The notes: a model not told the origin generated them from the sequence alone. A DNA stretch of 64,000 nucleotides from Minicystis rosea (GCA_001931535.1 CP016211.1:4503573-4567572), one strand, 5' to 3'. Counted from the stretch's first letter, positions 14,766 to 36,529 are shown. A program made the numbers and translations.

Positions 14766-15057
14766 TGGTTCGAGGCCACGGCGGGGCTGGCGCTCGCGCG
14801 CGCTTCGCCACTTCGTTGGAGCTCAAACGATCGCGGTGATATCGTTTGAGCACCAACGATCGCGATGCCGCCGCGATCGAAGCTGACATCCGCGGTGACC
14901 AGGCCGAGCGACCATCGCGCCGTCGACGGTGGGGCTCGGTGCTTTCATTTGCCTGCTTCCTTCGCTCTTGACGGCGCGAGCGCGGGACTTGCAGAGCGGG
15001 CGCAGAGCAGCAGCTCTCGTCATGGATTCACGGATGATGATGATGATTCGAGGCTCG

Positions 15058-17372: not shown

Positions 17373-17477
17373 GATGAGAACTCCTTCTCATGGCGCACGT
17401 GTTCGCTGACGACCGCATAGCAGAAGGAGCACGCGCGCCGCAAGGGCCGGTAAAAATGCCCAAATGAGACCAGATCG

Positions 17478-18397: not shown

Positions 18398-19249
18398 TCA
18401 GGCGTCCGGTTCTCCTTCACCACCCAGGCGTTGGATGGTGTTGCTAACGACATCGCCCTCGCTGTACACGCGGCCGTTAATGCGCACGACGCGAGCGCCG
18501 GAGCCGACCTTCTCGCGCAGGTCGCCGAAACCATCCTGCGGCACGTGGGGGATGAACTCGGCCCCGCAAGCAAGCAGCACGTCGGCAGATGGCCATCCAC
18601 CGCCTTCGCGCTCTGCTTGGCGCTGGATCAAATCAGGCAGCACGCACACGAACTCGGCGGAGGCGTCTCCCTCGTCGTAGCCCTCCATGTTCTCGTGGAA
18701 CCGCTCGGCCTCCCACGCCGTGCGTGCGATCACGAACCAGTCCTCGTCGCCGTCGCCTGTCTCGCACCAGTAGAGCTTCCACTTCGCCCAGAACACCGGC
18801 ACGGTGCGACCGTCGCCGTCCTCGTCATAGTCCGAAGCGTCCGTCTCGTCATCGTGTGTGTCCGCCTCTTCTCCTTCCTCGTCATCAAGGAAGTGCTCGG
18901 TGGCGCCGGTGGCGCCCTGTTCTGGCAGATAGCTATAGAAGAGCACGTCGCCGAGCTTCTGGTGATTGACGATAAGGCCGCGCGTGAGGTCGCCTGACGC
19001 CGTCTCGATGAAGGCGTTCGCGTAAACCACGACGGGGCCGAGGCTGCCACTCGTGGTCGCGATCTCGTGGAGGCGTGCGCGACACTTGGACACGGCGTCA
19101 TCCACGTCCCGCGCTTCGACGACGATCTGGAAGGTGCCGTCGTCGTCGTCAGCATCGTCTTCGCTGCCGACAAGTTCCTCATCAGGGCTGAACTCGAAGC
19201 AGCAGACGAACAGCTTGGTGAGCTGAGCGCTGTTGGTCTCGTCGGGCAT
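18398..19249 (-). CDS. hypothetical highly acidic protein (candidate immunity/partner protein)
   Basis: ATG at 19249 (M10 of ORF 18398..19276) with a GGAGG RBS. 283 aa, rich in D/E runs ('EDDADDDDG', 'DDEEGEEADTHDDETDASDYDEDGDG'). It is the last gene of the minus-strand vgrG cluster. Confidence 0.45.
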   Translation of the reverse strand: MPDETNSAQLTKLFVCCFEFSPDEELVGSEDDADDDDGTFQIVVEARDVDDAVSKCRARLHEIATTSGSLGPVVVYANAFIETASGDLTRGLIVNHQKLGDVLFYSYLPEQGATGATEHFLDDEEGEEADTHDDETDASDYDEDGDGRTVPVFWAKWKLYWCETGDGDEDWFVIARTAWEAERFHENMEGYDEGDASAEFVCVLPDLIQRQAEREGGGWPSADVLLACGAEFIPHVPQDGFGDLREKVGSGARVVRINGRVYSEGDVVSNTIQRLGGEGEPDA

Positions 19250-19390
19250 CGCAATCCTCCGTCGCCGCGGTAGCACAACACGCCTCTTGAGGTGGCCCTT
19301 TCGTCGAGAAGAGCTGGGCTCGGTCCTGGGGCAGCTCCGGAGTCCGGAGTTCCCAGCCTGTGCCGCGTGCAGCGGCCGAGCTCCCCGACG

Positions 19391-19870
19391 TCAGGGCAGT
19401 TCCACGTTCGCGGCGAGCACCTTTATCGCCTTTGCCGCACGCAGCGCCACCCCCTCGCCCGCGAGCCGAATCGCGCCGCTCTCATCGAGCATCAGCACAG
19501 CCTTTCCGACACGCAACACGATTGCCCGCTCCGCTGCGAGCTCCAGATCCTTCGCATCGAGGCGCAACTTCTCCGGCTTGCCCTCCGCGCTCGGCTGCGT
19601 CTGCAACGCGCCAACGATCACGACGCCGTCGCGCGTCTGCGTTACCAACATCGTCCGCCGGGTCCGCCTGCATTCGTCAGCGAGAGCCGGGGCGACCCCC
19701 TCCGCGAGCTTCGCGCGTACGCGCTCGCCCGCTGCCGTCCGCACGCGGTACGCGCCCCTGGGCCCAGGCTCGATCGTCGCAGCGTGCAAGCCCGGACCGA
19801 GAGCGATGTCCGTCGCAGCGACCCCAGCGCGCGTCTTCCGTCCCACTCTCGCAGATCCCGCTTTCGTCAT
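19391..19870 (-). CDS. hypothetical 159-aa protein with beta-helix-like repeats resembling a VgrG C-terminal region
   Basis: The start codon overlaps the upstream stop (ATGA at 19867-19870). The C-terminal half 'LRLDAKDLELAAERAIVLRVGKAVLMLDESGAIRLAGEGVALRAAKAIKVLAANVEL' alternates hydrophobic/small residues like a spike beta-helix or DUF2345. Confidence 0.45.
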   Translation of the reverse strand: MTKAGSARVGRKTRAGVAATDIALGPGLHAATIEPGPRGAYRVRTAAGERVRAKLAEGVAPALADECRRTRRTMLVTQTRDGVVIVGALQTQPSAEGKPEKLRLDAKDLELAAERAIVLRVGKAVLMLDESGAIRLAGEGVALRAAKAIKVLAANVELP

Positions 19871-22335
19871 CGACGTCTCCTCCGCGCATCATGCCACGAG
19901 CCCGCGCGCCATCGCGCGCTCTGCGTGTTCTCGGTTGCCTCGTGCAGCCTCGTGCCGGCGTCGCTCCCCCACAGGTCGAGATCGACACGGGACCAGAGCC
20001 CGGTCCGCGCCCACAACTCGTCGAGATCGCGCTCCATGTCGCCCTGCGATCCGGCGTCGGTCAACGTCGACATCCGCAAATCGCGCGCGATGGCCACTGG
20101 CGTCCAAGGGGCGCCATGGCGATAGCGTAGCGAAGGATCGAGGTCGCGCTCCGCAAGCGCGGCGCGCCACACGCTGGGCTGTAGACGGGCCTCCGGCTCC
20201 ACGATCGGACCGAACAGCATGAGCAGCGCCTCTCTTGCCGCGTCAGCGAGCTCGGCGTCCGCTAGATGGTGCAGGAGGAACGACCACGTGAGCGGGTTGC
20301 CGAATCGGCCTATCGCGTGGAGTAAATCGGGCGTCATGGGCGTGCTGGCGATGATGTCCTCCAGATGCACCAAATCGTCCGCCGAACCACCCATTACGAA
20401 CAGCTCGGCGGCGCGCGTGCCCAGCGCCGAGACCAGGGGACGCCGCTCGCGTAGGGCACAGAGCGCGGCGTCGTCGCCCCACAACGTCACCGCGCGTGCG
20501 GCTTCCCACGCCACGCCGACGTCGGAATGCGAGAGAAGCGAGCCCACCCGCTCGTCCGCTTCCGGAGGCGGAAGCGGCGCCGCGATCCGCGTGAGCGCTC
20601 GAACCGCCGCGGCAACCCGAGCCGGAGCCTCGTTGTCGAGCAGCGACGATGCCCGCGCTACGTCGAGCGTGCCTCGACGCGACAGCACATCAATGCCGAT
20701 GGCGCTGGCGATCGGGTGATCGCTGTCGAGCAGATCCGCGGCGAAAGCAACCACACCAAGATGAGGCGACGACGCGAGCGCGTTCGTCGCAACGTGCACC
20801 GCATCGCTCGCGTCCACTGGCAAGCGCTCGAACATACGCACGAGCCCGAGGAGTCCGTCAGGACCGTTGACCAGGCCGAGGAGGAAAACTGCGGGCCAGA
20901 GTGCCCACACATGGCCCTCTGCATAGGCTCGCTCGCTCCAGTCGACCACGTCCACGAGCGCGCGCTCGCCCGAAACGAGGATGGCGTCGGCCAGCTTGAG
21001 GATGCGCGCCTCGCGCGTCGCTCGGAGTGCAAACGGACGCGTCACCCGATGCTCGGCGAGCATCGCCATTGTGTCGGCCGCGCTGGCGACGATGCCCTCC
21101 ATGAAGGCCTCGCTGGAGATCGGCGCCGTACGCTGATCGTCGAGATGAACCTCGACGGGGTTCGGCCGCACTGCGCTCGGCTCCTCGTCGCCGAGCGCCG
21201 TGTCTGCGAACTCGCGCGATGGCGCGTCGTGCGGCGGAGCGTGCGCGCACGGTCCCACGAAGGCCACGAGGCGCGGGCGGCCGAGGATCGCATGCTCCGG
21301 CCCCGGCGCGTTCGTCGCCATCGCGGTCATGGCGCACAGCCCCCGCGTACCGTCTCTCGAGACTGCCCAAGCGACGAACGGCGCCGCCCCAGCCGCATGC
21401 TCGCGCGCGGCGTGGTGCCGCTCTGCCGCGAGCCCGTGTGCGATCTGCGCAGCAGCGGAAGCAGCACCGACACGGCCGATCGATCGCTCGACGCACTCGA
21501 TCGTCATCGTCTCGTGCCAGAGCGCCGCGTGCCGCGCGGAGGCGCAGGTCCACTCTGCCATGCGAAGCGAGTCGATCTCGGCCTGGCCGTACACACGTGC
21601 GATCGGGCCGAGCCCGGCCGGCACGCCATCGAGCAGCGCAGCGAGGGCCGTCCCGTCGACGACCAGATCGTCATCGTCGCTGCCCGCGCCTTTCGTCGTC
21701 CCGGCGTAGTGTACAGTGCCGAGCGAGAGCCCGAGCTCGCGGGCGCCCGCGCCCTTCGTCACCACGAGCGCCGCAGCCGCCTCCGAGAGCGGCGGTGGCT
21801 CCCGCGTCCACGATGGCGGGTCGATCTCCAACTCTGCGCGCACGGCGTCGAGCGAGACGAAAGATTCGACCGCGACCAGCACGACCACGCGCACCTCGCC
21901 GGCCTCGAGCAACCGATCAGCCTCGAGCAACGCCGCGAAGAACGACGCGGCCCCCGTGAACACGCGCCGCAGCGGAGCAGGCGTTGCGGTTGCAAGCATG
22001 CTCGCCGCCGCTTGGCGATCGGCCTCAACGAGCCCTGGCCGCGTCGCTCCGAAGTTCATCAGCAGGGCCATGTTACCGGGCGCCACGTGCGGCATCCGCT
22101 CCAACACCTCGCTCGCCGATTGGAGTGCGCGCTCTCCGAGTGCGGCCAGCCGCTCCGCTATGGAGAGCTTCGCGCCGAGCCACGGGCAGTGGAACACCGG
22201 CGCGGGCTCGCCGTCGGTGCCGACGAAGGCCGACGGGGGGCAAAGACCAAGCCCCGCACGCACGAAGCAGGCGTGTTGGAGCGGCGTAAGCCCGATCGGG
22301 GACACCAAGGCCGAGCCGATGATCGCGAGGTTCAC
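19867..22335 (-). CDS. 822-aa protein: N-terminal thiolase/ketosynthase-like fold lacking the catalytic Cys, plus C-terminal HEAT/ARM-like repeats (candidate T6SS cargo)
   Basis: GTG start at 22335 overlaps the vgrG1 stop (GTGA). The N-terminus 'VNLAIIGSALVSPIG...' parallels the KS 'IAIIGMGCRFPG' motif, 'TGAASFFAALLEADRLLEAGEVRVVVLVAVE' aligns to the KS 'TACSSSL...' active-site region without Cys, and 'IGRVGAASAAAQIAHGL' is a KS C-terminal-like Gly motif. The C-terminal 350 aa hold repeated 'xxLLxxxDxxVRxAAxxAL' HEAT-like helices. Confidence 0.5.
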   Translation of the reverse strand: MNLAIIGSALVSPIGLTPLQHACFVRAGLGLCPPSAFVGTDGEPAPVFHCPWLGAKLSIAERLAALGERALQSASEVLERMPHVAPGNMALLMNFGATRPGLVEADRQAAASMLATATPAPLRRVFTGAASFFAALLEADRLLEAGEVRVVVLVAVESFVSLDAVRAELEIDPPSWTREPPPLSEAAAALVVTKGAGARELGLSLGTVHYAGTTKGAGSDDDDLVVDGTALAALLDGVPAGLGPIARVYGQAEIDSLRMAEWTCASARHAALWHETMTIECVERSIGRVGAASAAAQIAHGLAAERHHAAREHAAGAAPFVAWAVSRDGTRGLCAMTAMATNAPGPEHAILGRPRLVAFVGPCAHAPPHDAPSREFADTALGDEEPSAVRPNPVEVHLDDQRTAPISSEAFMEGIVASAADTMAMLAEHRVTRPFALRATREARILKLADAILVSGERALVDVVDWSERAYAEGHVWALWPAVFLLGLVNGPDGLLGLVRMFERLPVDASDAVHVATNALASSPHLGVVAFAADLLDSDHPIASAIGIDVLSRRGTLDVARASSLLDNEAPARVAAAVRALTRIAAPLPPPEADERVGSLLSHSDVGVAWEAARAVTLWGDDAALCALRERRPLVSALGTRAAELFVMGGSADDLVHLEDIIASTPMTPDLLHAIGRFGNPLTWSFLLHHLADAELADAAREALLMLFGPIVEPEARLQPSVWRAALAERDLDPSLRYRHGAPWTPVAIARDLRMSTLTDAGSQGDMERDLDELWARTGLWSRVDLDLWGSDAGTRLHEATENTQSARWRAGSWHDARRRRR

Positions 22336-24917
22336 GGCGTGTCCACCTCTCCGCTCTGTTGCGCTTTGCCATTGATGGTGACGCTGGTCGCCTTGAGCAG
22401 AACGCCGCCCGATGACACCGAGAAGCTCGAACTGCCGCAGTGGAACGTCACGATCCCGCCCGTGAGCGACATCGCGCCACCGACCTTGATGCTGAGCGCG
22501 CTCCCAGACTTGATGCGATGGTCCTTGCCCGCCGTGCTCGTGAATGAGCCGCTGACGGTGCGGTTCAGCGCCGTCTTTACCGCCTTCACGATGTTGCCGC
22601 CCAACGCCGAGATCCGGATGCTGGCAGCCTTGTCGACGGAAGCGCCCAGCGTGCTCGTGGAAACGCTCGTCGCTTGGATGTTGTGATCGCCCCCGACAGC
22701 GAAGACGGAGCGACCCAGCGTGGTCCACCGGACCATGGCCGGCGTCATCACGGCATGGGGACCGCCGATCAACTCGACCATCGCGCCATCAACCTTGGCG
22801 TTGCGATGCCCCGGCCCGGGGCCAGCCGGACCGTTGGCCCCGGCATCCGGGCCAGCGGCGCCGCCGCCTGGCGCGGTGCCGCCTTCGCCGTCGTGGTCAG
22901 GCCGCGGTTCCCACGGAGCGTAGCCAGCACCATACACCGCGGCCATGACCGCATCGGCCCCGGGGATGTGCCCGAGGACTGCTTGAATGGCCGCGTCCTT
23001 GGCGCCCTCCTCGCCGCCGTGGATCGCCCCGGCCGCGACCCCAGCAGCGGTGCCCGCGACATGAGGTACCAACGCGCCGACGGCTGCGACGGTCTTCCCC
23101 CACCTGCCCATGGCCTCGCCGAGCTTGGCACCAGCAGCGGACGCTGCATGAATCGCGGCGGCTTCGGCGAGCGCCACGACACCATCGACGGGGTTGCCGA
23201 CCCTCTCCAAGAGCGCGCCGCCCACAACAACCGATTCGCTCCCTGCCAGGATGCCCATGTCGCCCTTGACGCGAATCGTCTGCGAGCCCCCTACGGCGAG
23301 CGACTGCGAGCCCGCGTCCGTCACGTACTGCAACTTGACGGAGACCTTCTCGCTCGCGCCGATCGAGAACATCTGCGCGCCGCCTACGGCGCAGACTTCG
23401 TTGCCCGCCGTCTGCGTCATCATGTTGTTGGCGACGACGGTGGTCTTTCCCGTGCCCGCGGACCACGCCATGTGCTGACGGCCTGCGACGTCGTCGAAGC
23501 GCACGGCGTTCTTGCGTGCTCCACCTGGCGAGCTCGACGTGGCGAGGCTCGTCACGGTCTTGTTTGCCGGCAGGCTGTGCGGCGGGCCGTGTTTCGCATT
23601 GTACGCGCGACCGACGACTACGGGACGATCGGGATCGCCATCCTCGAACGCGACGGCGACCTCCCAGCCGACGCGCGGGATCAGCATGGATCCAGGGAGG
23701 TTCGGCTGCGCGACGCGGACCGGGAGGCTGCTCGTGTCGTCCGTGGCGCCCTCGCGATCCCAGAAGAAGCGCACCCGCACGCGACCAGCTGCATCGGTGT
23801 GGATCTCCTGCCCGGGAGGCCCCGTCACGACCGCGGTGTGCAGCCCGGCGATTCGCGGGCGCGGCGTCACGCGAGGCAGGCGATACGGGACGTCGAGCGG
23901 GATCGCCGACACCTCCAGCTCGTAGCGAGGCTCGTCTGCGCGCCATCGGTGGTCGATCGCGACGGCTACGTGCGGTCCATTGGGCCGCGCCGCGCCCCGG
24001 TAGTCGCTGCTAGGCTCCATGCGAAATGACAGCCCGGGGGCGAGGGCGAGCGCCGTACTTGCGAAACGTATCGCGCGCGCGTCGGCGCGGAGGCCCTCCA
24101 AGAGCAGCCGTGCGCGCCTTGCCCCCGCGCCGGGCGTCTTGAAACGACCCGGCGCTTCGTAAACCTCCACAGCCTTCTCCGCGCCGAGCCCGTCCAGCCC
24201 GGTGCCTTCGAGCAGGGCCGTGGGGTGCTCTGGGTCGAAATCGCGCAGCGTGACCGTGCCGGCGCGGCGTCGCCGACGCGCCGAACAATCCGACGCGACC
24301 GCGCGATCGGGCACGAGGTGCGACGCGTCCACAAGCGGGAGCGGAGCGGACAGCGCGGGCGGCGCGCTCACGGAGGAGTCTTCCAGCACGAAGGCGTCGA
24401 AGCCGTCGCGCGGCTCGAAGCGGAAGTAGAGTCCCTCGTCTTCGCACAGCCGGCGCACGAACGTGAGATCGTCCTCCGCGTACTGCACGACATACTCGCG
24501 CGGGGAGTGCTTGGTCAGGAGCGAAGATGCCACGTGGTCGGCGTCGAAGCCGGCAGCGCCGAGCACCTTACGAATCACGTCGGGCACGCTCATGTGCTGG
24601 AACACGCGCGTCCGCCTCCGGAGCGAGAGCACGTGGACGGCCGAGCGCACCATCAGCTCGTACCGACGCGCATCCGTCTCCTGCGCCGTCGCGATGGCGA
24701 TGAAGCGCGTGACGATCCCGTGGAACACGCGCTCTCCGGCCGCAGTTGCGCAGAAGACGGCGCACGCCTTGCCGAGCACTGCGCGGGCGTCCACGGGCTC
24801 TGGAGAGACCATCTCCAACTCGGCAACGAGGGGCTCGCCCAGCGCCTCGTGCATGCGCAAGGCGCGGCACTCCAGGGGAACGCGCGCATCCGCCAGCCGA
24901 AACATCACGTGTGCCAT
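22332..24917 (-). CDS. vgrG: type VI secretion spike protein VgrG (paralog 1, 861 aa)
   Basis: Gp27/gp5-like core with 'RPRIAGLHTAVVTGPPGQEIHTD', 'IPRVGWEVAVAFEDGDPDRPVVVGRAYN' and 'GARKNAVRFDD', then a beta-helix of GxxxVxVGG repeats and a Gly/Ala/Pro-rich C-terminal extension. Confidence 0.85.
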   Translation of the reverse strand: MAHVMFRLADARVPLECRALRMHEALGEPLVAELEMVSPEPVDARAVLGKACAVFCATAAGERVFHGIVTRFIAIATAQETDARRYELMVRSAVHVLSLRRRTRVFQHMSVPDVIRKVLGAAGFDADHVASSLLTKHSPREYVVQYAEDDLTFVRRLCEDEGLYFRFEPRDGFDAFVLEDSSVSAPPALSAPLPLVDASHLVPDRAVASDCSARRRRRAGTVTLRDFDPEHPTALLEGTGLDGLGAEKAVEVYEAPGRFKTPGAGARRARLLLEGLRADARAIRFASTALALAPGLSFRMEPSSDYRGAARPNGPHVAVAIDHRWRADEPRYELEVSAIPLDVPYRLPRVTPRPRIAGLHTAVVTGPPGQEIHTDAAGRVRVRFFWDREGATDDTSSLPVRVAQPNLPGSMLIPRVGWEVAVAFEDGDPDRPVVVGRAYNAKHGPPHSLPANKTVTSLATSSSPGGARKNAVRFDDVAGRQHMAWSAGTGKTTVVANNMMTQTAGNEVCAVGGAQMFSIGASEKVSVKLQYVTDAGSQSLAVGGSQTIRVKGDMGILAGSESVVVGGALLERVGNPVDGVVALAEAAAIHAASAAGAKLGEAMGRWGKTVAAVGALVPHVAGTAAGVAAGAIHGGEEGAKDAAIQAVLGHIPGADAVMAAVYGAGYAPWEPRPDHDGEGGTAPGGGAAGPDAGANGPAGPGPGHRNAKVDGAMVELIGGPHAVMTPAMVRWTTLGRSVFAVGGDHNIQATSVSTSTLGASVDKAASIRISALGGNIVKAVKTALNRTVSGSFTSTAGKDHRIKSGSALSIKVGGAMSLTGGIVTFHCGSSSFSVSSGGVLLKATSVTINGKAQQSGEVDTP

Positions 24918-24925
24918 GGCTCGTC

Positions 24926-27118
24926 CTACCCGTCGGTCTTGTCGGTGCCGGTGACCTTGGTCTTCACGCCGCTCTCGAATGGGCCCTGCACGTCGATCGA
25001 CGTCGGCGTCATCTTGACCGTCATGCCCGCGGCCTCGATGGTGAGGCTGCTCTTGGCCTTGACGATCACCTTGCTCCCCCGGAGCGACGCCGAGCCATCG
25101 ATCGAGAGCGATGCCGCTCCCTTGAAGCCATCCTGTACGAAGCCGGCGGCCGAGACCTTGTAGGAACCGAACGACTCATCGAGCGCGATCGCCTTCAGCC
25201 CGTACTGCGGCGCTCGCACGTTGATCGGTCCACCGCTCGCTCGCACGTGCGCACCGGTGACGCCGACCACGGAGGCCACGGTGCCGATCTCGTGCCAACA
25301 CCCGCCCACGACCACGGCGGCGCCGCCGCTCACGTGACGACTGTGCCCCGCGATGGCCGTCTCGATCTTCGCCGCGCCCACGACACGCGCCAGCGTGCTC
25401 GAGACCTCTGTGGCGTAGTCGCCGCCGACCTCGAATAGCCGCGCCCCGCCGACCGAGACCGACTCGGAGCCGAGGCCGAAGGCCATCGCGCCGCCCACGT
25501 TGACGGCGCGGCTCGCGCCAACCGACGTGCTCTGCGCGCCGTCGACCTTCACCGCGCACACCGCGCCGACGATCTGCGTGCGGTTCGCACCGATCTCGTG
25601 CTTGTCGGTGCCCTTGACGTCTACGGTCTTGTCGCTCTCGGTCCGCTCGTTGTAGTCCGACGACGCGTTGAGGAGCATGTCTTCGTGCCCCGCGGCATCG
25701 TCCATACGCAGGGTGTTGGCGCTGCCGCCTCCGGGCGTCGTGCGCGATCCGAACGCGCTTCGGACCTTCTGTGCGGGTAGCGCCTCCGCGGGCCGTGCCG
25801 CGCCGTTGTCGAGCCGGCCGAGCACGTAGGGCTTGTCGGCGGACGCGCCCGAGAACCCGAGCAGAGCCTCCCACCCGACGCGCGGCAAGAACACCGAGCC
25901 GGACGTTTGCGGCTGGAGCGGCCGGATCCAAGTCGAGCTGGTTTCGTCCTTCTTGCGGCGCCGATCCCAGCGCAGGAGCGCGGTCACCTGGCCGTGCGCG
26001 TTGGTGTGGATCTCCGTGCCGGCCGGCCCTGTCACGGTCGCGGTCTGGACTCCGGCGATCGTTGGCGGCTCGGCACGACGCGGGCGGTACGGCGTCTCGG
26101 CCGGGATAGCGATGAATTCGGCATCGAACCGGCGGCCGTCGCGACCAGTTGAGTCGTTGCCCCGCAACTGCCATCGCACGTCGAGCAGGAGCCAGCGCGC
26201 GTTGACATCCTTCCGCGCTGCCCCCGTGAGCTCGAACGTGCGGCCCGGCGCGAATCGTCGGCAATTCGTCTTTCCCGTCAGCAGGACGCGCTCGGCGCGC
26301 GCCTCTTCGAGACGCAGATTGGCGACCACTTCGCCCGCGGCAGGATCGCGGTAGCCACCGGGCATCTCATTGCACGTCAGCGCTCCGACCCCTGCTCTCG
26401 CCTCTGCCCGAAGATCGGCGCGGGGATGCTCGAAATCGTAGTCGCAGAGGCGCACGGCGTCGCGCACGACCGCGCGCCGGAGGCGCACGGCGAATACGCA
26501 GTCCTGCTCGACGAACCCGGCGTCCGCCGCGAAGGGAAGCAGCGCGTCCCCAGCTATCGGCGCGAAGGCGGCAGGGCTGTCCGCGAAGACCACGACATCC
26601 GACCCGCTCTCGTGGTCGACGAACCACGCGATCCCTTCGGCGGCGAGGAGCCGGGAGAAGAAGGCAAGATCGCTCTCGAACGCCTGCACGCACTGCGCAT
26701 GTTTCGGTAGCCGGCGCGACACGCGCACGTCGACGTCCAGGCCGTGCTCCGTCAGCACGGCCCGCGCGATCTCGGCTGCGTCCTGCTGAAGAAAGACCTG
26801 ATGGTCGATCGCGTCCGCGAGCGGAGCGACGCGAGGAGCGATCGTCAGTCGCAGCTCTCCGTAGCGCTGTTCCGCGTCCTCAACGACGCCATGCACGGTC
26901 CGCTCGCCGCCGTCGCCCAACGCCACGGCGAACGTCGCCCGTTGGCCCACCAAACCGTCGAGGTCCACGGCGGCCTTCTCCCCGGAGCCATCGACTGCGC
27001 ACGCCGTGACCACGATCGTGAACGGCTGGCCGAAACCCTCCACGCCGCGCGCGCTCTCCACGAGCAGGCGCTCCGCCGCACCTTCCACGACAAGGCGTCC
27101 GAGTCGTTCGCGTGCCAT
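24926..27118 (-). CDS. vgrG: type VI secretion spike protein VgrG (paralog 2, 730 aa)
   Basis: 'PPTIAGVQTATVTGPAGTEIHTNAHGQV', 'LPRVGWEALLGF...KPYVLGRLDN' and beta-helix repeats. The start ATG directly abuts the vgrG3 stop (TAGATG). Confidence 0.85.
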   Translation of the reverse strand: MARERLGRLVVEGAAERLLVESARGVEGFGQPFTIVVTACAVDGSGEKAAVDLDGLVGQRATFAVALGDGGERTVHGVVEDAEQRYGELRLTIAPRVAPLADAIDHQVFLQQDAAEIARAVLTEHGLDVDVRVSRRLPKHAQCVQAFESDLAFFSRLLAAEGIAWFVDHESGSDVVVFADSPAAFAPIAGDALLPFAADAGFVEQDCVFAVRLRRAVVRDAVRLCDYDFEHPRADLRAEARAGVGALTCNEMPGGYRDPAAGEVVANLRLEEARAERVLLTGKTNCRRFAPGRTFELTGAARKDVNARWLLLDVRWQLRGNDSTGRDGRRFDAEFIAIPAETPYRPRRAEPPTIAGVQTATVTGPAGTEIHTNAHGQVTALLRWDRRRKKDETSSTWIRPLQPQTSGSVFLPRVGWEALLGFSGASADKPYVLGRLDNGAARPAEALPAQKVRSAFGSRTTPGGGSANTLRMDDAAGHEDMLLNASSDYNERTESDKTVDVKGTDKHEIGANRTQIVGAVCAVKVDGAQSTSVGASRAVNVGGAMAFGLGSESVSVGGARLFEVGGDYATEVSSTLARVVGAAKIETAIAGHSRHVSGGAAVVVGGCWHEIGTVASVVGVTGAHVRASGGPINVRAPQYGLKAIALDESFGSYKVSAAGFVQDGFKGAASLSIDGSASLRGSKVIVKAKSSLTIEAAGMTVKMTPTSIDVQGPFESGVKTKVTGTDKTDG

Positions 27119-29326
27119 CTACGCCCCCACCTTCGACGTCGCCTTACGGGCCGTCGTGGCGGCGTCGATCTTCGTCGTCCCGCCGTCCACCATCAGTTTG
27201 CCGCCGATCTTCGCCGTCGAGCCGCCGGTCGCCTTGAGACTGCCCGCGACCTTGATTGTGATTGTCGGCGCCTCGATCTGGATCTTGCCGCCCGCGCTCA
27301 TGCTCACGGTGCCCCCAACCTTGATCCGGCCAACAGCCGCCAACGTCTCGACGTCGCCCGCGGCGGTCTCCGACACCGGACCCGCCGAGACGGCCTTCGC
27401 GCCGGTCACGCTCTCATCACAGCCGCGCCCAGCGACGACGTTGCGCGCGCCGCCGACCAGCTCGATCCGCATGTCGGCCACGCTCTCGTGCGTGCCAAGC
27501 CCCGCGAGCGCCGCCAAGTTGCCGCCGACGAGCTCGGCGTACGCGCCCTGAACAGTGGTCATGGCCTCGTTGCACTGGAGGCCGTAGAGCGCGCCGATCG
27601 CCTCCGTGTAGCTCCCGACCTTCACGTGCCGATTCGCTTTGACGCCGATGTCCTCCACCGCGCCCACCGTCTCGGTGCGCGCGCCTTTGACGAGCGTCTG
27701 TACATCTGCCCCCACGTCGACATTCTGCGAGGCGCCCACGGTGATCGCCTGCGACTTCACGTGCACGCCATAGCCGCCGCTGATGTCGTGCGTCTCGTTC
27801 GCGCCGACCTTCGTGCTCGCGTTCGCACCGACGCTCACGCCTTGGGTGTTCGACGCGTGAACAAACATCTCCTGCCCGCTGGCTGCATCGCCGAAACGGA
27901 TCTCGTTCGACGTTCCGTCGTGCGGCGACGTGTTCGATCGCAGCGCCGAGGTCGCCTTCATCGCCGGCAGCGCATAGGGCGGCGCCGTTATCGCGTTGTA
28001 GACCTGGCCGAGCACCAATGGCTCGTCCGGGTTCCCATCGACGTACGCCACGCCTACCTCCCACCCCACGCGCGGCAGGAGCATCGAGCCGCCCATGTTC
28101 ATTTGCAGCGTGCGCGTCCATCGCGACGACGTGTCGTCGAGGGTGCCCGAGGGATCCCAAGGCAGCGCGAGCTTGACCGAACCGAGATCGTCGACGTGGA
28201 TCTCCTCTCCGCGCGGGCCAGTCACGAACGCGGTCTCGACCCCCTCGATCCTCGGCCGGATTGCCGGGGGCGATGGCCGGAACGTGCGTTCGTTCCCGTC
28301 GAGCGAGCGCGGCACGAGCAGGACGCGGTTGCGATAGGGCCAAGCCGTCGTGGTGCTGTCCGCTGCCTGCTCGAGCGCGTGCTCAACCTCCACGATTAGC
28401 CAGTGGCCGTTGAACGCAGCGTCAGCGGCGCCGTGGATCCCCACCACACGGCCGGGTTGAAGCCGCGTGCACCCGCTCTCTCCGCGCGCTGAGACCTGGA
28501 GCCGTTGAAGCTGTGCCAGGCGCACGCGCGCGCGGGCCTCCGCGGCGTCGGCGTGCAGCACACAGGCCGGGAACTCGAACCATTCGCACGCGCCGTCGCC
28601 GGCCCGACCTTCGATCAGCACGTCCGGCTGGTGCACGTCGTAGTCGCGCACGTGGACCGCGTCGTGCGCCAGCTCGTCGGCGCGCGCGAGCGAGAAGAAG
28701 GACGACACCGTGCCTGACATCCCGCTCGCGTCGGCGAAGGGCACGCGCACGTCGCCGAGGATGCCGTCGTAAGAGCCTGGGGCGTCACCGAAGACGATGC
28801 GCGGCTCGCCCTCGTGCGCGTCGAACCAGTACGAAATGCCCTCTTCGGCGAGTAGCCGCTCGATGAACGTCCATTCGCTCTCGTCGTACTGCACGCACTG
28901 CATGCGGCGGGCGTAGCGGCCCGCGAGCCGCCAAGTTACGTGCATCGCGGGCACGCACGCATCGCGGAGCACCTCGTCCACGATCTCCTGCGTCGTCTTC
29001 TTCTGGAAGATGCGATAGCCGCTCCGGAGGCTAAGCGGCCACACCTCGACGGACAGCTCGAGAACGTAGCGGTGCTCGTCGCGGTACGGCCCATCGTAGG
29101 CCGCGTGCGTGACCACGAGAGGGATGTCCCGCTCCGGTCCGTCGCCGTCGTCGGCGAGCCGCAGCGCGGCTTGCGCGAGGCCAAGCCCGTCGAGGTCCAC
29201 GTCGGCGTCCTCCGTGAGCACGTCTACGGTCCAGTTCGGAAGCGCGTTCATCGCTTCGAGCCCGCGGACGTGGACCACGCGGCAGGCGCCGAGCCCTTCG
29301 CACGACAGCGACACGTACTTGCTCAT
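27119..29326 (-). CDS. vgrG: type VI secretion spike protein VgrG (paralog 3, about 735 aa)
   Basis: ATG at 29326 (M20 of ORF 27119..29383) with a GGAGAG RBS. 'RPRIEGVETAFVTGPRGEEIHVDDLGSVK', 'LPRVGWEVGVAYVDGNPDEPLVLGQVYN' and C-terminal beta-helix repeats. Overlaps the upstream gene stop (ATGA). Confidence 0.85.
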   Translation of the reverse strand: MSKYVSLSCEGLGACRVVHVRGLEAMNALPNWTVDVLTEDADVDLDGLGLAQAALRLADDGDGPERDIPLVVTHAAYDGPYRDEHRYVLELSVEVWPLSLRSGYRIFQKKTTQEIVDEVLRDACVPAMHVTWRLAGRYARRMQCVQYDESEWTFIERLLAEEGISYWFDAHEGEPRIVFGDAPGSYDGILGDVRVPFADASGMSGTVSSFFSLARADELAHDAVHVRDYDVHQPDVLIEGRAGDGACEWFEFPACVLHADAAEARARVRLAQLQRLQVSARGESGCTRLQPGRVVGIHGAADAAFNGHWLIVEVEHALEQAADSTTTAWPYRNRVLLVPRSLDGNERTFRPSPPAIRPRIEGVETAFVTGPRGEEIHVDDLGSVKLALPWDPSGTLDDTSSRWTRTLQMNMGGSMLLPRVGWEVGVAYVDGNPDEPLVLGQVYNAITAPPYALPAMKATSALRSNTSPHDGTSNEIRFGDAASGQEMFVHASNTQGVSVGANASTKVGANETHDISGGYGVHVKSQAITVGASQNVDVGADVQTLVKGARTETVGAVEDIGVKANRHVKVGSYTEAIGALYGLQCNEAMTTVQGAYAELVGGNLAALAGLGTHESVADMRIELVGGARNVVAGRGCDESVTGAKAVSAGPVSETAAGDVETLAAVGRIKVGGTVSMSAGGKIQIEAPTITIKVAGSLKATGGSTAKIGGKLMVDGGTTKIDAATTARKATSKVGA

Positions 29327-30486
29327 GAGCTCTCTCCCGAGCGTGCGAGGCGCGCGCGTGCCTCCTCGAACGCCTGCATCCATCGGCGCTGGAGCTCCGG
29401 AGCGCGATTCAGCGCGCGCCCCCAGCGCTCGTCCTCGCTCTGCTTCGCTTCGGGCGTCAGGCCGTGCCGGGCGAGCAGATCATTGACCTCGGCGCCCGTC
29501 GTGAGCTCCGCGACGAGCCGCGCGTGAAGCTCGATCGTCAGCATCGGCTCAGCGGTCGCGGGTGCACGCTCGAACGCCTCCGCGAGCGGGATGATCTTCC
29601 CGCTCGGCATCTCCAGCACCGTCGTTGCATCGGGATCGACGACAACCGGCACCGGAGCGGCATGATCGGCTTCGTGTCGTGCCACCCACGCGGGCGGCAC
29701 AGGCTCGTTTGACACGAGAGCAGCGTCGACCGGAGCCGCCGGCGCCCCGCTCACGAAGAACGCGGACGCCGTGAACGGCAGCGCGGCGTCGGCTTCCTGC
29801 ACGCCTCCCAGACGCGTCTCGTCGAGCCCGGGCGCCGTGGCATGCGCACGCTTGCGTCTCGGGAGCGGGACCGCAAGCGGCGGCGGGAGCGGCCCCGGCT
29901 CGCCCTCGCCGAACGGGAGCGCCCGTGTGCGCGGGCTCACGACCGTGGCGGTCTTCCCATCGCGCCCGCGCGGCGTCGGCCCCGTTTGGATGAGCCGCGG
30001 TCGCTCGGGCGCCGGCACGGGCGGTTCGCGGCGCTCGCCCTGAAGGAGCTCGAGCGCATCCGCGCGCAGCTTCGCATCCTCGGCGAGGCGGTCGGACCAG
30101 AGGCGGTGCAAGTGCGCCAGATCCGCGACGCCGAGCTTCATCTCTTCGAGGAACGCGACCGGATCCGGATGGGCCAGCCACGCTTGCAGGAAGTCGAACC
30201 ACGAGCGCAGATCCTCATCGAGCGGCGGGATTCGTCGTGTCCAGTGCGTGCGCGCCTCGGCCGTCGCCGCTTCGAGCGCATCGAAGAACGACGGATCGTC
30301 CTCGATCGCGTCGAGCACATGCTCATCCCACGCTTCCTCCGCGGCCTCCCACGTACGCGCATCGAGCCGCAAGAAACCAAGGAGCTCGCCCAGCCCGAGC
30401 CCATCCGTGAGCCCGGCCCGCACGAACGCGAACTGCGCGAGCGTCACGCCGTCGAGAGCCATCTCCGTCACGTCAGCCATCGGCAT
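29323..30486 (-). CDS. hypothetical protein between DUF2169 and vgrG3 (possible adaptor)
   Basis: ATG at 30486 (MPMADVTEMALDG...) within ORF 29323..30537. The stop overlaps the vgrG3 start. No recognisable domain. Acidic, helical N-terminus and a Pro-rich middle. Confidence 0.45.
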   Translation of the reverse strand: MPMADVTEMALDGVTLAQFAFVRAGLTDGLGLGELLGFLRLDARTWEAAEEAWDEHVLDAIEDDPSFFDALEAATAEARTHWTRRIPPLDEDLRSWFDFLQAWLAHPDPVAFLEEMKLGVADLAHLHRLWSDRLAEDAKLRADALELLQGERREPPVPAPERPRLIQTGPTPRGRDGKTATVVSPRTRALPFGEGEPGPLPPPLAVPLPRRKRAHATAPGLDETRLGGVQEADAALPFTASAFFVSGAPAAPVDAALVSNEPVPPAWVARHEADHAAPVPVVVDPDATTVLEMPSGKIIPLAEAFERAPATAEPMLTIELHARLVAELTTGAEVNDLLARHGLTPEAKQSEDERWGRALNRAPELQRRWMQAFEEARARLARSGESS

Positions 30487-31465
30487 CCACCCGGATCTCG
30501 CGCAGCGCGGTCTTGCCGCGTCCCATCGGGAACGCATGGCGCACGGTGAGCTCGATGCGATCGTCGAGTGGCTCGATCAGCACCGTGTCGACGGTGGGCC
30601 GCACCCCCACCGACCGCCCGTCGTTGTAGCGCCCGTGCAGCGAGACGGGCAGCGACGGAAGCTCCGCCTTCCAGAGACCGTCGAGTGTCATCCCGACGAG
30701 CGCGATTGGATCACCCGCGCCGAGCGGCGGATCAAACTGCAACGCGACCGGGGCCACGTTGTTGTGCCGCACGTCGAAGTCGGCGGGCATGCGCGGCATC
30801 CGCGTCCTCCGCCATATGTCATCGAAGGTGCCGGCGAGCTCCGCGCGCGGCGACCAGTGCGCGCTGATGGCGCCGAAGCCGACTGGCTCGGGTCGGTCGG
30901 CGGCGCTCGTGATTGGGAATGCGGGGTCCTCGATTTGCGGCGCGGGCATGTCGACCAACTCGGCCGCGCTCCGACCGAAGCCGCGCCCCACGGGGTTGCG
31001 CCGCTCCACGACGCTCTTGTCCAAGCTCGTACCGCCGTACGCGCGCTCCCACACGATCGGCTTGCGCTCGAAGGACGCGGCCGGGCCCACTGTCACGCCG
31101 AGCGCGCCGCGGTAGTAGACGCGCTCGCCGTGGACCCGCAGGTGGATTTTGCGGTCGCGCACGAGGGCGCCGACGTCCACCGCGAGCACGGGACGCTGCG
31201 ACACCGCCGCACCGACAATCACGACGTCCGTGCCACGCTTCTCTACGCAGATGTCGCCGGGGTAGCGGATGCAACTGTCCTCGGCGTTGGGGAAGTATGA
31301 GATGTCGCCGGCGCGCACCGGAACCTGCTCATCCGCGAGCGCGAGGCGCCCGCGCGCGTCCCGGCGGAAGGTCGCCTTCACGACGGCAAGCACGACGTCG
31401 CGGCCGTCGGGAGCGGCAAGGGGCGCGGCGAGCGCGGCGAAGGATGTCGCGTTGGCGAGGGCCAT
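30473..31465 (-). CDS. DUF2169-family T6SS-associated protein
   Basis: ATG at 31465 (M64 of ORF 30473..31654). N-terminus 'LANATSFAALAAPLAAPDGRDVVLAVVKATFRRD' fits the DUF2169 N-terminal pattern (N.T.f......vvvKaTf). About 330 aa in the typical position beside vgrG. Confidence 0.55.
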   Translation of the reverse strand: MALANATSFAALAAPLAAPDGRDVVLAVVKATFRRDARGRLALADEQVPVRAGDISYFPNAEDSCIRYPGDICVEKRGTDVVIVGAAVSQRPVLAVDVGALVRDRKIHLRVHGERVYYRGALGVTVGPAASFERKPIVWERAYGGTSLDKSVVERRNPVGRGFGRSAAELVDMPAPQIEDPAFPITSAADRPEPVGFGAISAHWSPRAELAGTFDDIWRRTRMPRMPADFDVRHNNVAPVALQFDPPLGAGDPIALVGMTLDGLWKAELPSLPVSLHGRYNDGRSVGVRPTVDTVLIEPLDDRIELTVRHAFPMGRGKTALREIRVDADG

Positions 31466-31469
31466 GGGG

Positions 31470-32117
31470 CTAGGTCGAGTCCTGGTGCCCGCGCAACCGA
31501 CCGCAAGTGGAGCATCGGAAGACGTAGGTTGATACGGTGTCCGCTTCGACCCACTCGGCAAGATCGGCCGCTTCATCGGCGCGGAAGTCGAGAACCTCTC
31601 CCACCAGAGTGACAACCTCGACCCTGCGCTCGGCCGCCGCTCGCGCCCAATCATCGATATCCCAGCTACCTACGAAGATCGCGGGACGATGGCAGCAGAA
31701 CTGCCATTGCTCACCCTGCCACGTGCTGTAGTTTGGAGTTCGCAGGAGTTCTTCGAGGTGCTCTGGCGCGATCCGGACGCTGTACCACTCCTCGTCGTCC
31801 TCGGTGCGGGGCACCACCTCGTATCCCAGCGACGGCCACGGCGGGGAGTCCGTGCCGTGCGTGATACCCTTCGCAGCATGCTCCGCATCCACGATACCAA
31901 ACTCGGTATCTTTCATCCACGATGCGCGCCCCCCACGCAGACACGTGTAGCAGGCCACAAGCCTGTCCTTGTGTACGATCTCGAAGATGGGAACGCCACG
32001 GACGCCGCACATGGCGCAGTTGCCCGTCAACTTGAAGCCTTCCGCATCGGCGACACGCGCCTCAAACAGCGGGAATGGCATCCCGAGTTCCGCAAACGTT
32101 GACGTGTCAGAGCCCAT
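31470..32117 (-). CDS. cbrC: CbrC-family (UPF0167) protein
   Basis: 215 aa with an AAGGAG RBS. N-terminus 'FPLFEARVADAEGFKLTGNCAMCGVRG' and C-terminus 'YVFRCSTCGRL' parallel the CbrC/UPF0167 pattern (LPxFxYHPDPxxTG...CxxC ... FxCxxCG). Confidence 0.55.
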   Translation of the reverse strand: MGSDTSTFAELGMPFPLFEARVADAEGFKLTGNCAMCGVRGVPIFEIVHKDRLVACYTCLRGGRASWMKDTEFGIVDAEHAAKGITHGTDSPPWPSLGYEVVPRTEDDEEWYSVRIAPEHLEELLRTPNYSTWQGEQWQFCCHRPAIFVGSWDIDDWARAAAERRVEVVTLVGEVLDFRADEAADLAEWVEADTVSTYVFRCSTCGRLRGHQDST

Positions 32118-32132
32118 GGCAGTCTCCTTTGG

Positions 32133-32357
32133 TCAGAGCGGGATCGGTTTGTAGTTGAGGAGTTCGTCCACGATCTCCTCATCGCTGGCGTTCGTAAATC
32201 GACTGTCCCAGAAGATGACGTTGATGGGCATGGGGTGGACGACGGCTTCGTCCAGGCGATCGACTAGCGCGTCAATCTCCTCCTCCGTCCCCTCTGCGTT
32301 GCGGATCTTGTGCACCATGATCACGAGTTCGTCTCGCGAAAGCTGGCGTTGGGACAT
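32133..32357 (-). CDS. colicin/pyocin DNase-type immunity protein (Im family)
   Basis: 74 aa. 'LSRDELVIMVHKIRNAEGTEEEIDALVDRLDEAVVHPMPINVIFWD...SDEEIVDELLNYKP' parallels Im9 ('EFLQLVTTICNA...[27 protein letters not shown]'). AAGGAG RBS. Sits 16 nt downstream of the Rhs stop. Confidence 0.7.
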   Translation of the reverse strand: MSQRQLSRDELVIMVHKIRNAEGTEEEIDALVDRLDEAVVHPMPINVIFWDSRFTNASDEEIVDELLNYKPIPL

Positions 32358-32372
32358 CGTGCGCTCCTTGCT

Positions 32373-35300
32373 TCAGAAGTGATAGCCGCGATCGAGAATG
32401 CTCTGATGAAACCGCGGGGTGACCACAGCCAAGTTGCCCATATCGTAAACCCCGCCACCGTGCTGAATCGGCGTCAGGTGATGGATCACGTATCGTTTTT
32501 GCCCCTTGTACTGTTGCTCCCACGTGGTGAATGGTGATTCTCCGCGCCTCATCGTTTTGACCTGTCCCTCGTCGAACCGCGCAGATGCCTTTGGATCAGC
32601 GGCAACGGCCCTCCAAAACGCCTCGCGAAAGTCGTCAAAGGTCCTGAACCAACGTCCCTTGAGAGCTTCTGCGACGGACTTCGGAATGCGGCCAGCGTTA
32701 CGCTCTGTTCCCTTCATCCAGTTCTCAGGATCCGGGTGATTCTCCCCCATGTATGCCTTCCCCGGGCTATTCCGAAGCAGCCCCCAGGGATCGACGTCCG
32801 CCGCGGGACTCCCGTCAAACGCGAACAGGTTTCGCCCACCACGCACGCCCAGCGGATCCGGGCTAATCCACCTTCCCACCTCCGGGTCGAAGTACCGGAA
32901 GCGCGTGTAACAGAGCCCCGTCTCTTCATCGAGGAACTGCCCCATGAGCCGGAACGGCGTCGAGACCGCGCGCTTCGCCTGCGGATCTCTCCACGTCTCG
33001 ATCACCTGGCCCCACGCCGAGTGCATCGCGGCCCAGGCCACGCGGCCGTCCTGATCGACGAGCTCCTTCGGAATCCCGAGGTGGTCGTTGATGTACGTGA
33101 ACACCTCGCCCTGCTCCTGGTGGAGCATCGGCTCGAAAGTGCCGGGCTCGTGAACGAAGAACCGTGCTCCCTTCTCCGGATCGAGCTCGCCCGCGAGCAC
33201 GTTGCCGTCCCACAGGTATTCGACGACGCCGATCGGCGGCAGCGCCTCCGGCCCCTTCTCGTAGGCGAGCACGACCATCTTCTTGATGTCGCGCCGCTCG
33301 GCGGGGACGATCTGCTTCCGGACGCGGCGCCCGAACGCATCATACGTGTAGAGGACACGACGGCCGTCCGAGAGGCGGGTCTCGCGTAGCCGATCGCGGC
33401 AGTCCCAAAGGTACTCCGTCGACACGCCGGTCCGCTTCTTCGTGTGCTTCGTCCGCCGGCCCTGGCCGTCGTTCTCATAGCGCGCGCTCGGCGTCTCCGT
33501 CAGCAGATCGCCCTCGCGCGTGTGGAACGGGTGGATGCGATCGACATCGGCCAGGTCACGCAGCATGTTGAATAGGCCGCCGGTGCCGTCGTAGTCGAAG
33601 ACCTCCCGATGCCTGCCGAGCGCCGCCTCGATGAGTTGACCTAGCGGATCGTGCTGATAGGTCGTCGTGCCGTGTCGCGCGTCGGCGACGGTGCGCACGC
33701 GGCTGGCGTTGTCGTACTGGAGTTGGCGGCGCGAGAGGAGCGTCGCGGCGCCGACCCCCGTGGGCGCTGGCGCCGTGACTTGCTGGTCGACGAGCCGGTC
33801 CATGGCGTCATATGCGCGAAGAATGTCGACGCCTCCCGCGTACACGTGACGCCGCACGTCGCGGCCGAGGACGTCGCGCTGGATGGCGACGCGATGCCCG
33901 TCGTGCTCGACGCCGACGATGTCCCCCTGCGCGTCATAGTGGTAGTGCGTCGTGGCTCCGTTCGGCAGCGTGCGCGCGGTGCGACGTCCCTGCTCGTCGT
34001 AGGCGAACGTGATCGTCCGCTCGTCCTGCGTCTCCTTGATCACGCGGCCGAATGTGTCGCGCTCGAAGCTCGTCACGACCTTGCCGTTGTACTCGGTGAG
34101 CACCGCCTTCTTGACAAGTCCCAAGCGGTCGCGCTCGACCTTGATGGTGCCGTGCGGCGACAGGTCTGCGATCACGTTGCCCAGCGGATCATAAGCCAGG
34201 TTGCGGAACGTCCGGTCCGGGTAGTCGATACGCGAGAGGTTCTCCGCGAGCGAGTACGTGTACCGCAGCGTTCGGCCGTGGAAGCTCGTCTCCTCAATCA
34301 CACGGCCGGCGTCGTCGTAGTGCAGGCGGTACTCCTCGGCGCGCGGATCGGTGATGCTCCGCAGGCGTTCGAGCTCGTCGTACTTGAAGTGCCACTCCTG
34401 CTCCGTCGGATCGATGAGCTTCACGAGCGCATGCTGGCCCGCGTACTCCATGCGCGTCGTGTGGCCCTCCTCGTCGGTGACGGCAACGGCCCGCCCAATC
34501 GCGTCGTACTCGCACCGTGCCGTGGTGCGATCGGGCCGGTGGAGAGCGATCCTGCGCCCGAGCCGATCGTACTCGACACGGGTCACGCGGCCGAGCGCGT
34601 CCGTGCGCGTGAGCGGGCGCCCGAGAACGTCGTAGGTGCACCGCGTGACCGCCCCTCGGCCATCGGTCTCCTGCACGAGATTGTGCTGCTCGTCATACGT
34701 GAACGACGCGACGAGGCCAGCGTTCCCGTGCATCGCGGTCACACGGCCCCGGCCGTCGTACGTGAGCGTGAACCGCTCCCCGGTCGGGTGCGTCACCTCC
34801 TCGAGGGCGCCGCGGCCATCGTACGCGTACGTGGTGGCGTGGCCGCGCGGATCCACGTGCGCGACGAGCCGGTCGTCGTCGTACTCGAATGTCGTGGTGT
34901 TGCCCGCTTGGTCGATGCGCTCGACGAGGTTGGCGCGCGCGTCGTAGCGCAGCTTGATCTTCTCGCCCGCGGCGTTCGCCTCGGAGAGCAGGTGGTGGTC
35001 CTCGTCGTACTCGCGCACGCGGGCCCACTGGCCGTCGAGCGTCTCCTCGCGGACCACCAGCCCGTCCTCGGTCCAGGTGAACTTGAGAGGCTCCTGGTTG
35101 CCGGAGGTGAACGTGACCCGCTTTTCGAGATCGAAGTGCAGATCGGCCTCGTAGATCCCGCGGTCGCCGATGGTGCGCACGCAGCGGCCCGTGGCGTCAT
35201 CGTACGTGTAGCGAAAGCTCACCCCAACCTGCGTCGTGCGCTTCGTGAGGCGGTGCCAGCCGTCGTACTCGTAGCGGAGCACGCCGCCGAGCGCGTCGGT

Positions 35301-36431: not shown

Positions 36432-36529
36432 GATTCGAATCCTCGCGCGCGGGGCAAATCTCCGCCGTAGACGCGCTTCGCGCGTCGTAAATACCGCTCT
36501 TTCCGCTGCGGCTTGCTATCGCATGAACG

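Follow-up and report, generated by a model that had tools for sequence, protein, structure and literature searches.

An 822-residue thiolase-like/HEAT fusion protein and a 159-residue OB-fold protein encoded behind vgrG are probable accessory parts of a vgrG orphan island from Minicystis rosea

The 822-residue protein of Minicystis rosea analysed here is encoded directly downstream of a vgrG gene, and its gene is followed by those of a 159-residue protein and of an acidic 283-residue protein. These genes are contained in a 64,000-nucleotide stretch of the M. rosea genome (G+C content of roughly 70%), which was analysed in full and is hereafter termed the window. An earlier note on this DNA regarded the three genes as uncharacterised cargo of a type VI secretion system (T6SS), arranged like an effector with its chaperone and immunity protein. 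The present analysis points to a different assignment. The 822-residue protein is very probably an accessory protein of the TvpD/HEAT type rather than a toxin. Comparison with known islands suggests that its gene and the gene of the 159-residue protein probably encode accessory (adaptor or chaperone) parts of an orphan vgrG island, which follows the vgrG1b/Tvp class II plan. As judged from sequence profiles, the 822-residue protein is most likely a fusion of a PRK06147/TvpD-type protein (PA0098) and a TIGR02270-type HEAT protein, which corresponds in position to PA0101. The acidic gene is in all likelihood unrelated to this module.

All three open reading frames (ORFs) are present on the minus strand where the earlier note had placed them, and their third-position GC contents (GC3) of 0.79-0.81 are of the coding type. 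The ORF of the 822-residue protein spans 19867-22335, and its product is identical to the M. rosea hypothetical protein A7982_03856. Its thiolase-like N-terminal domain (residues 1-345) is encoded by 21300..22335, and its HEAT/alphaRep-type helical solenoid (residues ~401-822) by 19867..21135. The GTG start codon at 22335 shares its bases with the TGA stop codon of the preceding vgrG gene, vgrGc, in the form of GTGA, as had been described, and the stretch just 5' of this start codon is GGAGAGGTGG. The ATG start codon of the 159-residue protein (19391..19870, minus strand) likewise overlaps with the TGA stop codon of the 822-residue gene as ATGA. The acidic gene is separated from the 159-residue gene by a gap of 114-141 nucleotides, depending on the start codon chosen.

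Residues 2-312 of the 822-residue protein match the NCBIfam family PRK06147 (NF004798, named '3-oxoacyl-ACP synthase', where ACP is acyl carrier protein) with an E-value of 1.4e-14 and a score of 54.1 bits, at positions 5-322 of 349 in the model. A HMMER scan of 1.8 billion cluster representatives gives 379 relatives with E-values of 1e-3 or lower, of which 223 are at or below 1e-30. A profile was built from 47 stand-alone homologous N-domains, every one of which matches PRK06147 (best E 2.4e-27). When this profile is compared with the PDB, nearly all matches belong to the thiolase superfamily (thiolases, ketoacyl-ACP synthases (KAS) II and III, and ketosynthase (KS) domains of polyketide synthases; best E 2e-4), and the lone match outside this superfamily, a de novo protein, is at the chance level (E 0.31). 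The N-half as a single sequence gives only chance-level matches to PDB sequences, and a tblastn search of the PLSDB plasmids with the N-domain gives no match.

The N-half has in common with KAS II, KAS III and thiolases (FabF and FabH) the signature of the fold, including the Gly-rich C-terminal motif 'GxxGAAxA'. However, neither the nucleophilic Cys nor the His/His(Asn) residues of these enzymes are present. FabH Cys112 is aligned with Ala129 in the 'TGAASFF' segment of the 822-residue protein, and the column of the nucleophile contains Ala (22), Glu (14), Asp (6), Pro (2), Cys (1) and Ser (1) among the 47 homologues, so that one of the first three occupies it in 42 of them. FabF His340 is aligned with Arg288, and this column contains Arg (23), Ser (6), Ala (6) and others, never His among the residues listed. 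FabF Lys335 is aligned with Glu283, which is invariant in the homologues, and FabF His303 faces a gap. These alignments with the FabF active site are weak (E 0.01) and mutually consistent. Because the Cys and His/His(Asn) residues are absent, the N-half is not considered to be an enzyme of the KAS/thiolase class. Its sequence thus predicts a KS-like fold without the nucleophile, which is catalytically dead; the earlier note had already described this half as thiolase/KS-like and lacking the nucleophilic Cys, and the 47-sequence profile bears this out.

Residues 441-713 of the 822-residue protein match TIGR02270 with an E-value of 2.7e-12 and a score of 46.4 bits. Among 39 homologous C-domains, 33 match TIGR02270 (best E 1.9e-19), and the profile built from all 39 matches alphaRep/HEAT proteins with an E-value of 7e-25. 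Relatives of the C-half also match HEAT_2 of Pfam. The HEAT/ARM-like character ascribed to this half therefore stands. Modelling with AlphaFold2, which the earlier note had proposed as a check of the whole protein, agrees for this half, in which a helical solenoid is predicted at residues 440-740 (predicted local distance difference test score, pLDDT, 60-90). The claim that no known T6SS family is matched has to be withdrawn, because the two halves match PRK06147, a proposed T6SS adaptor (PMC7714669), and TIGR02270. On the basis of its gene neighbourhoods, Liu et al. (2020; PMC7714669) proposed that PRK06147 is a fourth class of T6SS adaptor. TIGR02270 is the domain most commonly fused to PRK06147, being present in 3.8% of the PRK06147 proteins, and 74% of the PRK06147 genes have a DUF2169 gene nearby, mostly as the first upstream gene (PMC7714669).

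VgrG, the OB-fold protein, the DUF2169 protein, the PRK06147-like protein and the PAAR toxin are encoded together in a single minus-strand cluster (19391-36515). No T6SS core gene is found within the window, and the cluster is therefore classified as an orphan vgrG island. Related loci were surveyed with one genome per species, which gave 25 further loci, all from Polyangiales (Sorangium So ce56, whose locus L035 contains the genes found in M. rosea, Sorangium So0157-2, Polyangium, Byssovorax and metagenome-assembled genomes), and the proteins of the window were mapped with phmmer onto all of the about 30 Polyangiales loci. The thiolase-like gene is located directly downstream of vgrGc in 28 of the 29 loci with visible upstream sequence, which largely answers the question, raised in the earlier note, of whether the homologues always follow vgrG. 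The HEAT gene follows the thiolase-like gene, or is fused to it, in all loci. The gene of the 159-residue protein (hereafter the mini gene) is located after vgrGb in 22 loci and after the HEAT gene in 6. In related loci, a PAAR-like RHS gene directly follows the mini gene or the HEAT gene, and the genes of a DUF2169 protein and a counterpart of a 417-residue protein of the window are close by.

The closest relatives, in which the HEAT part is 51-55% identical, have the gene order DUF2169, a protein of ~425-470 residues, three VgrGs, thiolase-like, HEAT and mini gene. The thiolase-like gene (310-341 residues) and the HEAT gene (475-510 residues) are separate in these relatives, and the mini protein has ~156-157 residues. 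The mini gene is followed there by nothing, by unrelated genes or by an RHS gene disrupted by an insertion sequence (IS). The best 150 cluster representatives consist of 29 thiolase-like/HEAT fusions, 48 thiolase-like proteins without HEAT and 73 proteins with HEAT only. The fusions and the strict adjacency of the genes argue that the HEAT protein at the PA0101 position is a physical partner of TvpD/PA0098. One of the 48 proteins without HEAT (P0152, 1183 residues) contains a complete VgrG (Phage_GPD, OB domain and Gp5_trimer_C), followed by a thiolase-like domain at residues 848-1179. Its natural occurrence is an argument that VgrG and the adaptor touch each other directly.

The three VgrG paralogues of the window are VgrGc (22332..24917, minus strand; 861 residues with a long C-terminal extension, residues ~600-861), which precedes the thiolase-like gene, VgrGb (24926..27118, minus strand; 730 residues), which is the paralogue followed by the mini-spike gene in most related loci, and VgrGa (27119..29479, minus strand). 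The last interval is a stop-to-stop frame, and translation probably starts near 29330 to give a protein of ~736 residues, as in the relatives. These paralogues represent three orthogroups, a, b and c, with E-values of ~1e-45 to 1e-82 between the groups and of 1e-111 to 0 within them. All three orthogroups are present in 19 of the about 30 Polyangiales loci (for example L001, L003, L004, L009 and L025-L035), the others being cut by contig ends. The conservation of the triple VgrG suggests an obligate heterotrimeric spike.

The 159-residue protein is basic (pI 10.5) and has 20 close relatives of 153-165 residues. Scans with Pfam, NCBIfam and PHROGs assign it to no family. The AlphaFold2 model consists of a disordered tail (residues 1-20), an OB fold at residues 28-89 with pLDDT 74-87 (strands 28-34, 41-45 and 50-55, helix 61-70, strands 73-79 and 82-89) and three short strands of low confidence at residues 116-137, the region of the would-be beta-prism. 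The top full-length matches of this model in Foldseek are the spikes of P1 (gp5, 9vzk), R2 pyocin (4s37) and P2 (gpV, 3qr8), with E-values of 2.6e-3 to 1.6e-2, probabilities of 0.90-0.99 and identities of 13-15%. Three members of the mini-protein family give no HMMER match to DUF6484 or DUF3540 at E-values up to 10. All three give weak matches to DUF2345 (E 0.015-0.1), which are not significant. The top local hhalign match of the family is the extreme C-terminal tip in each of the three VgrGs (E 0.005-0.013), which points the same way and is not significant either. The 159-residue protein is with moderate confidence assigned as TvpC-like. By comparison with the known islands we infer that it is the counterpart of PA0096/TvpC, which would trimerise as a mimic of the VgrG tip. 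The description of this protein as a beta-helix mini-protein is not retained, as the model shows an OB fold with a few short strands. An 8-residue periodicity of the gp5 type in its tail was considered and dropped: the autocorrelation at lag 8 is 0.02, a value reached by 1996 of 5000 shuffled sequences.

A possible role of these proteins is provided by the Tvp proteins of Serratia. Experiments with this organism have shown that TvpC, TvpAB, TvpB and Paar1 assemble into a pre-complex, from which VgrG1 later displaces TvpC (bioRxiv 10.64898/2026.02.23.707444). TvpAB and TvpB stay in the final VgrG1 complex, and the published model treats TvpC and VgrG as mutually exclusive. AlphaFold predicts for TvpC an OB fold as well as a beta-prism, by which it mimics a VgrG without gp27 (bioRxiv 10.64898/2026.02.23.707444). 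PA0098 was named TvpD in 2026 and described as a co-chaperone of the PAAR domain, in a Pseudomonas class II complex that is a model only (bioRxiv 10.64898/2026.02.23.707444). If the cluster of M. rosea works in an analogous manner, the RHS-DNase toxin (32373-36515) would first have its DUF4150-type PAAR domain assembled on a trimer of the mini spike, and this domain would meanwhile be shielded by the DUF2169 protein and the thiolase-like domain. The toxin would then be passed to the real spike, which would be built from the three VgrG paralogues. The HEAT solenoid would offer an extra binding surface, probably for the C-terminal extension of VgrGc, because its gene is always coupled to vgrGc.

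Several observations weigh against the assignment of the two proteins as TvpD/HEAT-type and TvpC-like accessory parts. The scores of both halves of the 822-residue protein are below the curated cut-offs, which are 342 bits for PRK06147, far above the 54 bits of the N-half, and 206.8 bits for TIGR02270, which the C-half does not reach; both halves are therefore distant relatives, not orthologues, of these families. The AlphaFold2 model of the N-half has a pLDDT of <50 and is unusable, because only three sequences of the 8-sequence alignment span this half, so that in this respect the modelling proposed in the earlier note does not help, and the thiolase fold is assigned from sequence profiles, whose E-values are modest. 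One locus, L014, has no vgrG in front of its thiolase-like gene. The PAAR-RHS gene of the window does not adjoin the 822-residue and 159-residue genes, but is located ~10 kb upstream of them. Finally, the role of TvpD has only the status of a model in the preprint that names it (bioRxiv 10.64898/2026.02.23.707444), and this preprint makes no mention of PA0101.

The thiolase-like/HEAT protein and the mini protein may alternatively be stable parts of the spike, which fill a cavity of the baseplate or extend the tip and are fired with the spike. The retention of TvpAB and TvpB in the final Serratia complex would fit with this possibility, as would the P0152 fusion, in which the thiolase-like domain can ride on the spike, and the strict coupling of the gene to vgrGc. 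It is nevertheless unlikely, because the published model does not place TvpC and VgrG in one complex and a TvpC-like mini spike would accordingly not be fired.

The accessory assignment is also compared with the proposal of the earlier note that the 822-residue protein is a new effector carried by VgrG, for which the 159-residue and acidic proteins would act as chaperone and immunity protein. A large gene that directly follows vgrG with an overlap suited to translational coupling would be expected for such cargo, and the homologous domain of P0152 occupies the C-terminus of a VgrG, which is the place of the effector domains in 'evolved' VgrGs. However, scans of the Pfam/NCBIfam type detect no toxin domain in the three-gene set, and the catalytic residues of the thiolase-like fold are gone. 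Across genera, the conservation of the 822-residue protein parallels that of the VgrGs: in relatives with VgrGs of 68-73% identity, the thiolase-like and mini proteins are 67-69% identical, and where the VgrGs are 37-46% identical, this value is ~40%. The polymorphic element is instead the tip of the RHS protein, for which 7 unrelated C-terminal groups are found among 18 proteins with cores that are 41-59% identical. No conserved immunity gene is found downstream of the mini gene in the loci of the closest relatives, the homologues of the acidic gene are encoded without vgrG nearby in six other contexts, and the PRK06147 family is documented as adaptor-like (PMC7714669). The cargo proposal is thus quite improbable. 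It is the gene of the PAAR-like RHS protein that varies within the module and bears the toxin, and the effector that the accessory genes serve is probably the RHS-DNase protein.

In one related locus (L003), the RHS gene located behind the mini gene (12009-15548) contains a segment of an IS1634/IS4-type transposase in its N-terminal part, so that an IS disrupts this toxin gene.

The acidic protein A7982_03854 (18398..19249, minus strand; an alternative GTG at 19276 would give 292 residues) is hyper-acidic as had been reported, with 65 Asp and Glu residues in 283 and a pI of 4.06. Members of its family have two conserved domains, which are joined by a variable acidic linker. It may be suspected to be a functional partner of the module in M. 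rosea, such as an immunity protein, or a chaperone whose charge would match that of the basic mini protein, as its gene is on the same strand only 114-141 nucleotides downstream of the mini gene and the charges of the two proteins are opposite (pI 4.1 and 10.5). This possibility is very remote in view of the contexts of its homologues. Neither vgrG nor any other T6SS gene is found near them in six other genomic contexts. In two of these, the complete genomes of Sorangium So ce693 (L007, 8976-10786) and So ce321 (L041, 6769-8777), the acidic gene is located 155 nucleotides after an intact tyrosine integrase gene, at the border of an island and among island-type genes (VapE-like, DUF3987, nSTAND NTPases and Mrr), and another context contains an nSTAND NTPase and DUF559. 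The acidic gene follows the mini gene in none of the loci of the closest relatives of the module, and a broken integrase is located just beyond it in the window. The acidic gene is thus a neighbour from a different, integrase-associated context, and the three genes do not form the single unit that had been assumed. An anti-restriction or DNA-mimic role of the acidic protein is pure speculation, and stays so because a PHROGs scan of this protein gives no match.

The tyrosine integrase gene of the window (16093-17387) is split over two overlapping frames, one for the SAM-like N-domain (16506-17387) and one for the catalytic domain (16093-16815), and is probably a frameshifted pseudogene. A tRNA scan for an integration site detects no tRNA gene in the window. 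Tandem arrays are present in the non-coding DNA that flanks the integrase remnant on both sides, at 14281-14770 and 17967-18049; they are composed of 42-43-bp units (~7 and 5 copies, 90% matches) and of a 16-bp unit (5 copies, 98%).

That the N-half is an ordinary active ketosynthase of fatty-acid or polyketide synthesis, which merely happens to be encoded beside vgrG, is suggested by the NCBIfam name of the best-matching family and is otherwise hardly credible, given the loss of the nucleophile (Cys in only 1 of 47 homologues), the replacement of the His340 and Lys335 equivalents, the deletion of His303, the conserved linkage to vgrG, and the fact that no ACP gene or other fatty-acid or polyketide gene is found near the 822-residue gene.

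The remaining genes of the cluster are located upstream of the vgrG genes, all on the minus strand. The conserved protein of ~417 residues, unk417 (29323..30576), matches no Pfam or NCBIfam family and has helical ends and a Pro-rich middle. Its gene always adjoins that of the DUF2169 protein in related loci. Because it holds the place of TvpD in the Pseudomonas gene order, unk417 was considered as a second thiolase-like protein and rejected, as hhalign detects no similarity to the thiolase-like domain, nor is there any to the HEAT domain. The DUF2169 protein, of the TvpA/PA0097 type, is encoded by 30473..31669, a stop-to-stop frame in which the domain begins at residue 88. The PAAR-like RHS protein (32373..36515) has 1380 residues, with the PAAR-like domain at residues 1-170, and carries a C-terminal DNase domain of the colicin/pyocin type; its match to Tox-PAAR-like/DUF4150 (PF13665) is weak, with 26.5 bits against a cut-off of 31 bits. 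Downstream of its gene, two small genes are located side by side (31470-32372). One encodes a 79-residue protein (32133..32372), which is presumed to be the immunity protein of the RHS DNase and gives a weak, below-cut-off match to colicin/pyocin immunity proteins. The other encodes a UPF0167/CbrC-like protein (31470..32132) of the colicin E2 tolerance family, which may act as an additional safeguard against the DNase toxin. Elsewhere in the window, two ORFs of Tn5-type transposases (49007-50479 and 51738-53210), which have the same length and codon-position composition, bracket the region 50512-51737 and may form with it a composite transposon.

The accessory assignment moves two proteins annotated as hypothetical in a myxobacterial genome of 16 Mb, together with several hundred relatives, from unknown cargo to an accessory role, and their genes can be used as markers for the polymorphic PAAR-RHS toxins of myxobacteria. 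What is new is modest: thiolase-like (TvpD) and HEAT (TIGR02270) proteins are strongly linked genetically, VgrG occurs naturally fused to the thiolase-like domain, the mini protein is a candidate for a third TvpC family, and the triple VgrG is conserved.

The 159-residue protein resembles the gpV-type spikes of phages and pyocins in its size range (157-207 residues for these spikes) and in the order of an OB fold and a beta tail. The 159-residue protein differs from these spikes in that no apex domain can be recognised and in that it is encoded in a T6SS island and not in a tail gene cluster. The TvpC proteins, which are represented by the DUF6484 short form (PA0096) and the DUF3540 long form (Serratia), are like the mini protein small, with an unstructured N-terminal tail, an OB fold and a short beta region. 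The genes of both are located in DUF2169/PAAR islands, often directly before the PAAR gene. In contrast to TvpC, the mini protein gives no HMMER match to either family, and its beta-prism and trimer are not modelled with confidence. The PRK06147/TvpD proteins are thiolase-like, as is the N-half of the 822-residue protein, and are encoded beside vgrG, DUF2169 and PAAR toxin genes. The PRK06147 genes are mostly located behind the DUF2169 gene, whereas the thiolase-like gene of M. rosea is located directly behind vgrG.

The vgrG1b island of Pseudomonas aeruginosa encodes PA0095 (VgrG1b), PA0096 (OB-fold protein), PA0097 (DUF2169), PA0098 (thiolase-like), PA0099 (PAAR toxin of the DUF4150 type), PA0100 (its immunity protein) and PA0101 (protein with HEAT repeats) (PMC7970981; bioRxiv 10.1101/2023.12.14.571490; PMC4067218). 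It is also present in Pseudomonas fluorescens F113 and Sinorhizobium fredii USDA257, and represents Tvp class II (Monlezun, Earl & Coulthurst, bioRxiv 10.64898/2026.02.23.707444). Every part listed for PA0095-PA0101 is also found in the cluster of M. rosea. The two differ in that the vgrG1b island contains one VgrG and the cluster of M. rosea three VgrG orthogroups, and in that PA0098 and PA0101 are separate, whereas the thiolase-like and HEAT parts of M. rosea form one fused protein. The gene order is permuted in M. rosea, in which the toxin and DUF2169 genes are located upstream of the vgrG genes and the thiolase-like gene directly after vgrGc. The toxin is an RHS protein of 1380 residues in M. 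rosea, but a short PAAR-GHH2 protein in the vgrG1b island. The cluster of M. rosea additionally encodes the conserved 417-residue protein, and its mini protein is not recognised by DUF6484, the type of PA0096. These differences could mean that Polyangiales possess a distinct and more elaborate Tvp-type class, with an obligate asymmetric VgrGa/b/c heterotrimer, an adaptor that reads only VgrGc, the TIGR02270 HEAT protein as a fifth Tvp component acting with TvpD, and the 159-residue protein as a third TvpC family outside DUF6484 and DUF3540; this is a tentative and rather doubtful suggestion. The proposal of PRK06147 as an adaptor, the PRK06147-TIGR02270 fusions and the list of parts of the vgrG1b island were already known. 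The locus of M. rosea does not represent a system of a new kind, but the myxobacterial variant of a spike-loading island that is already known.

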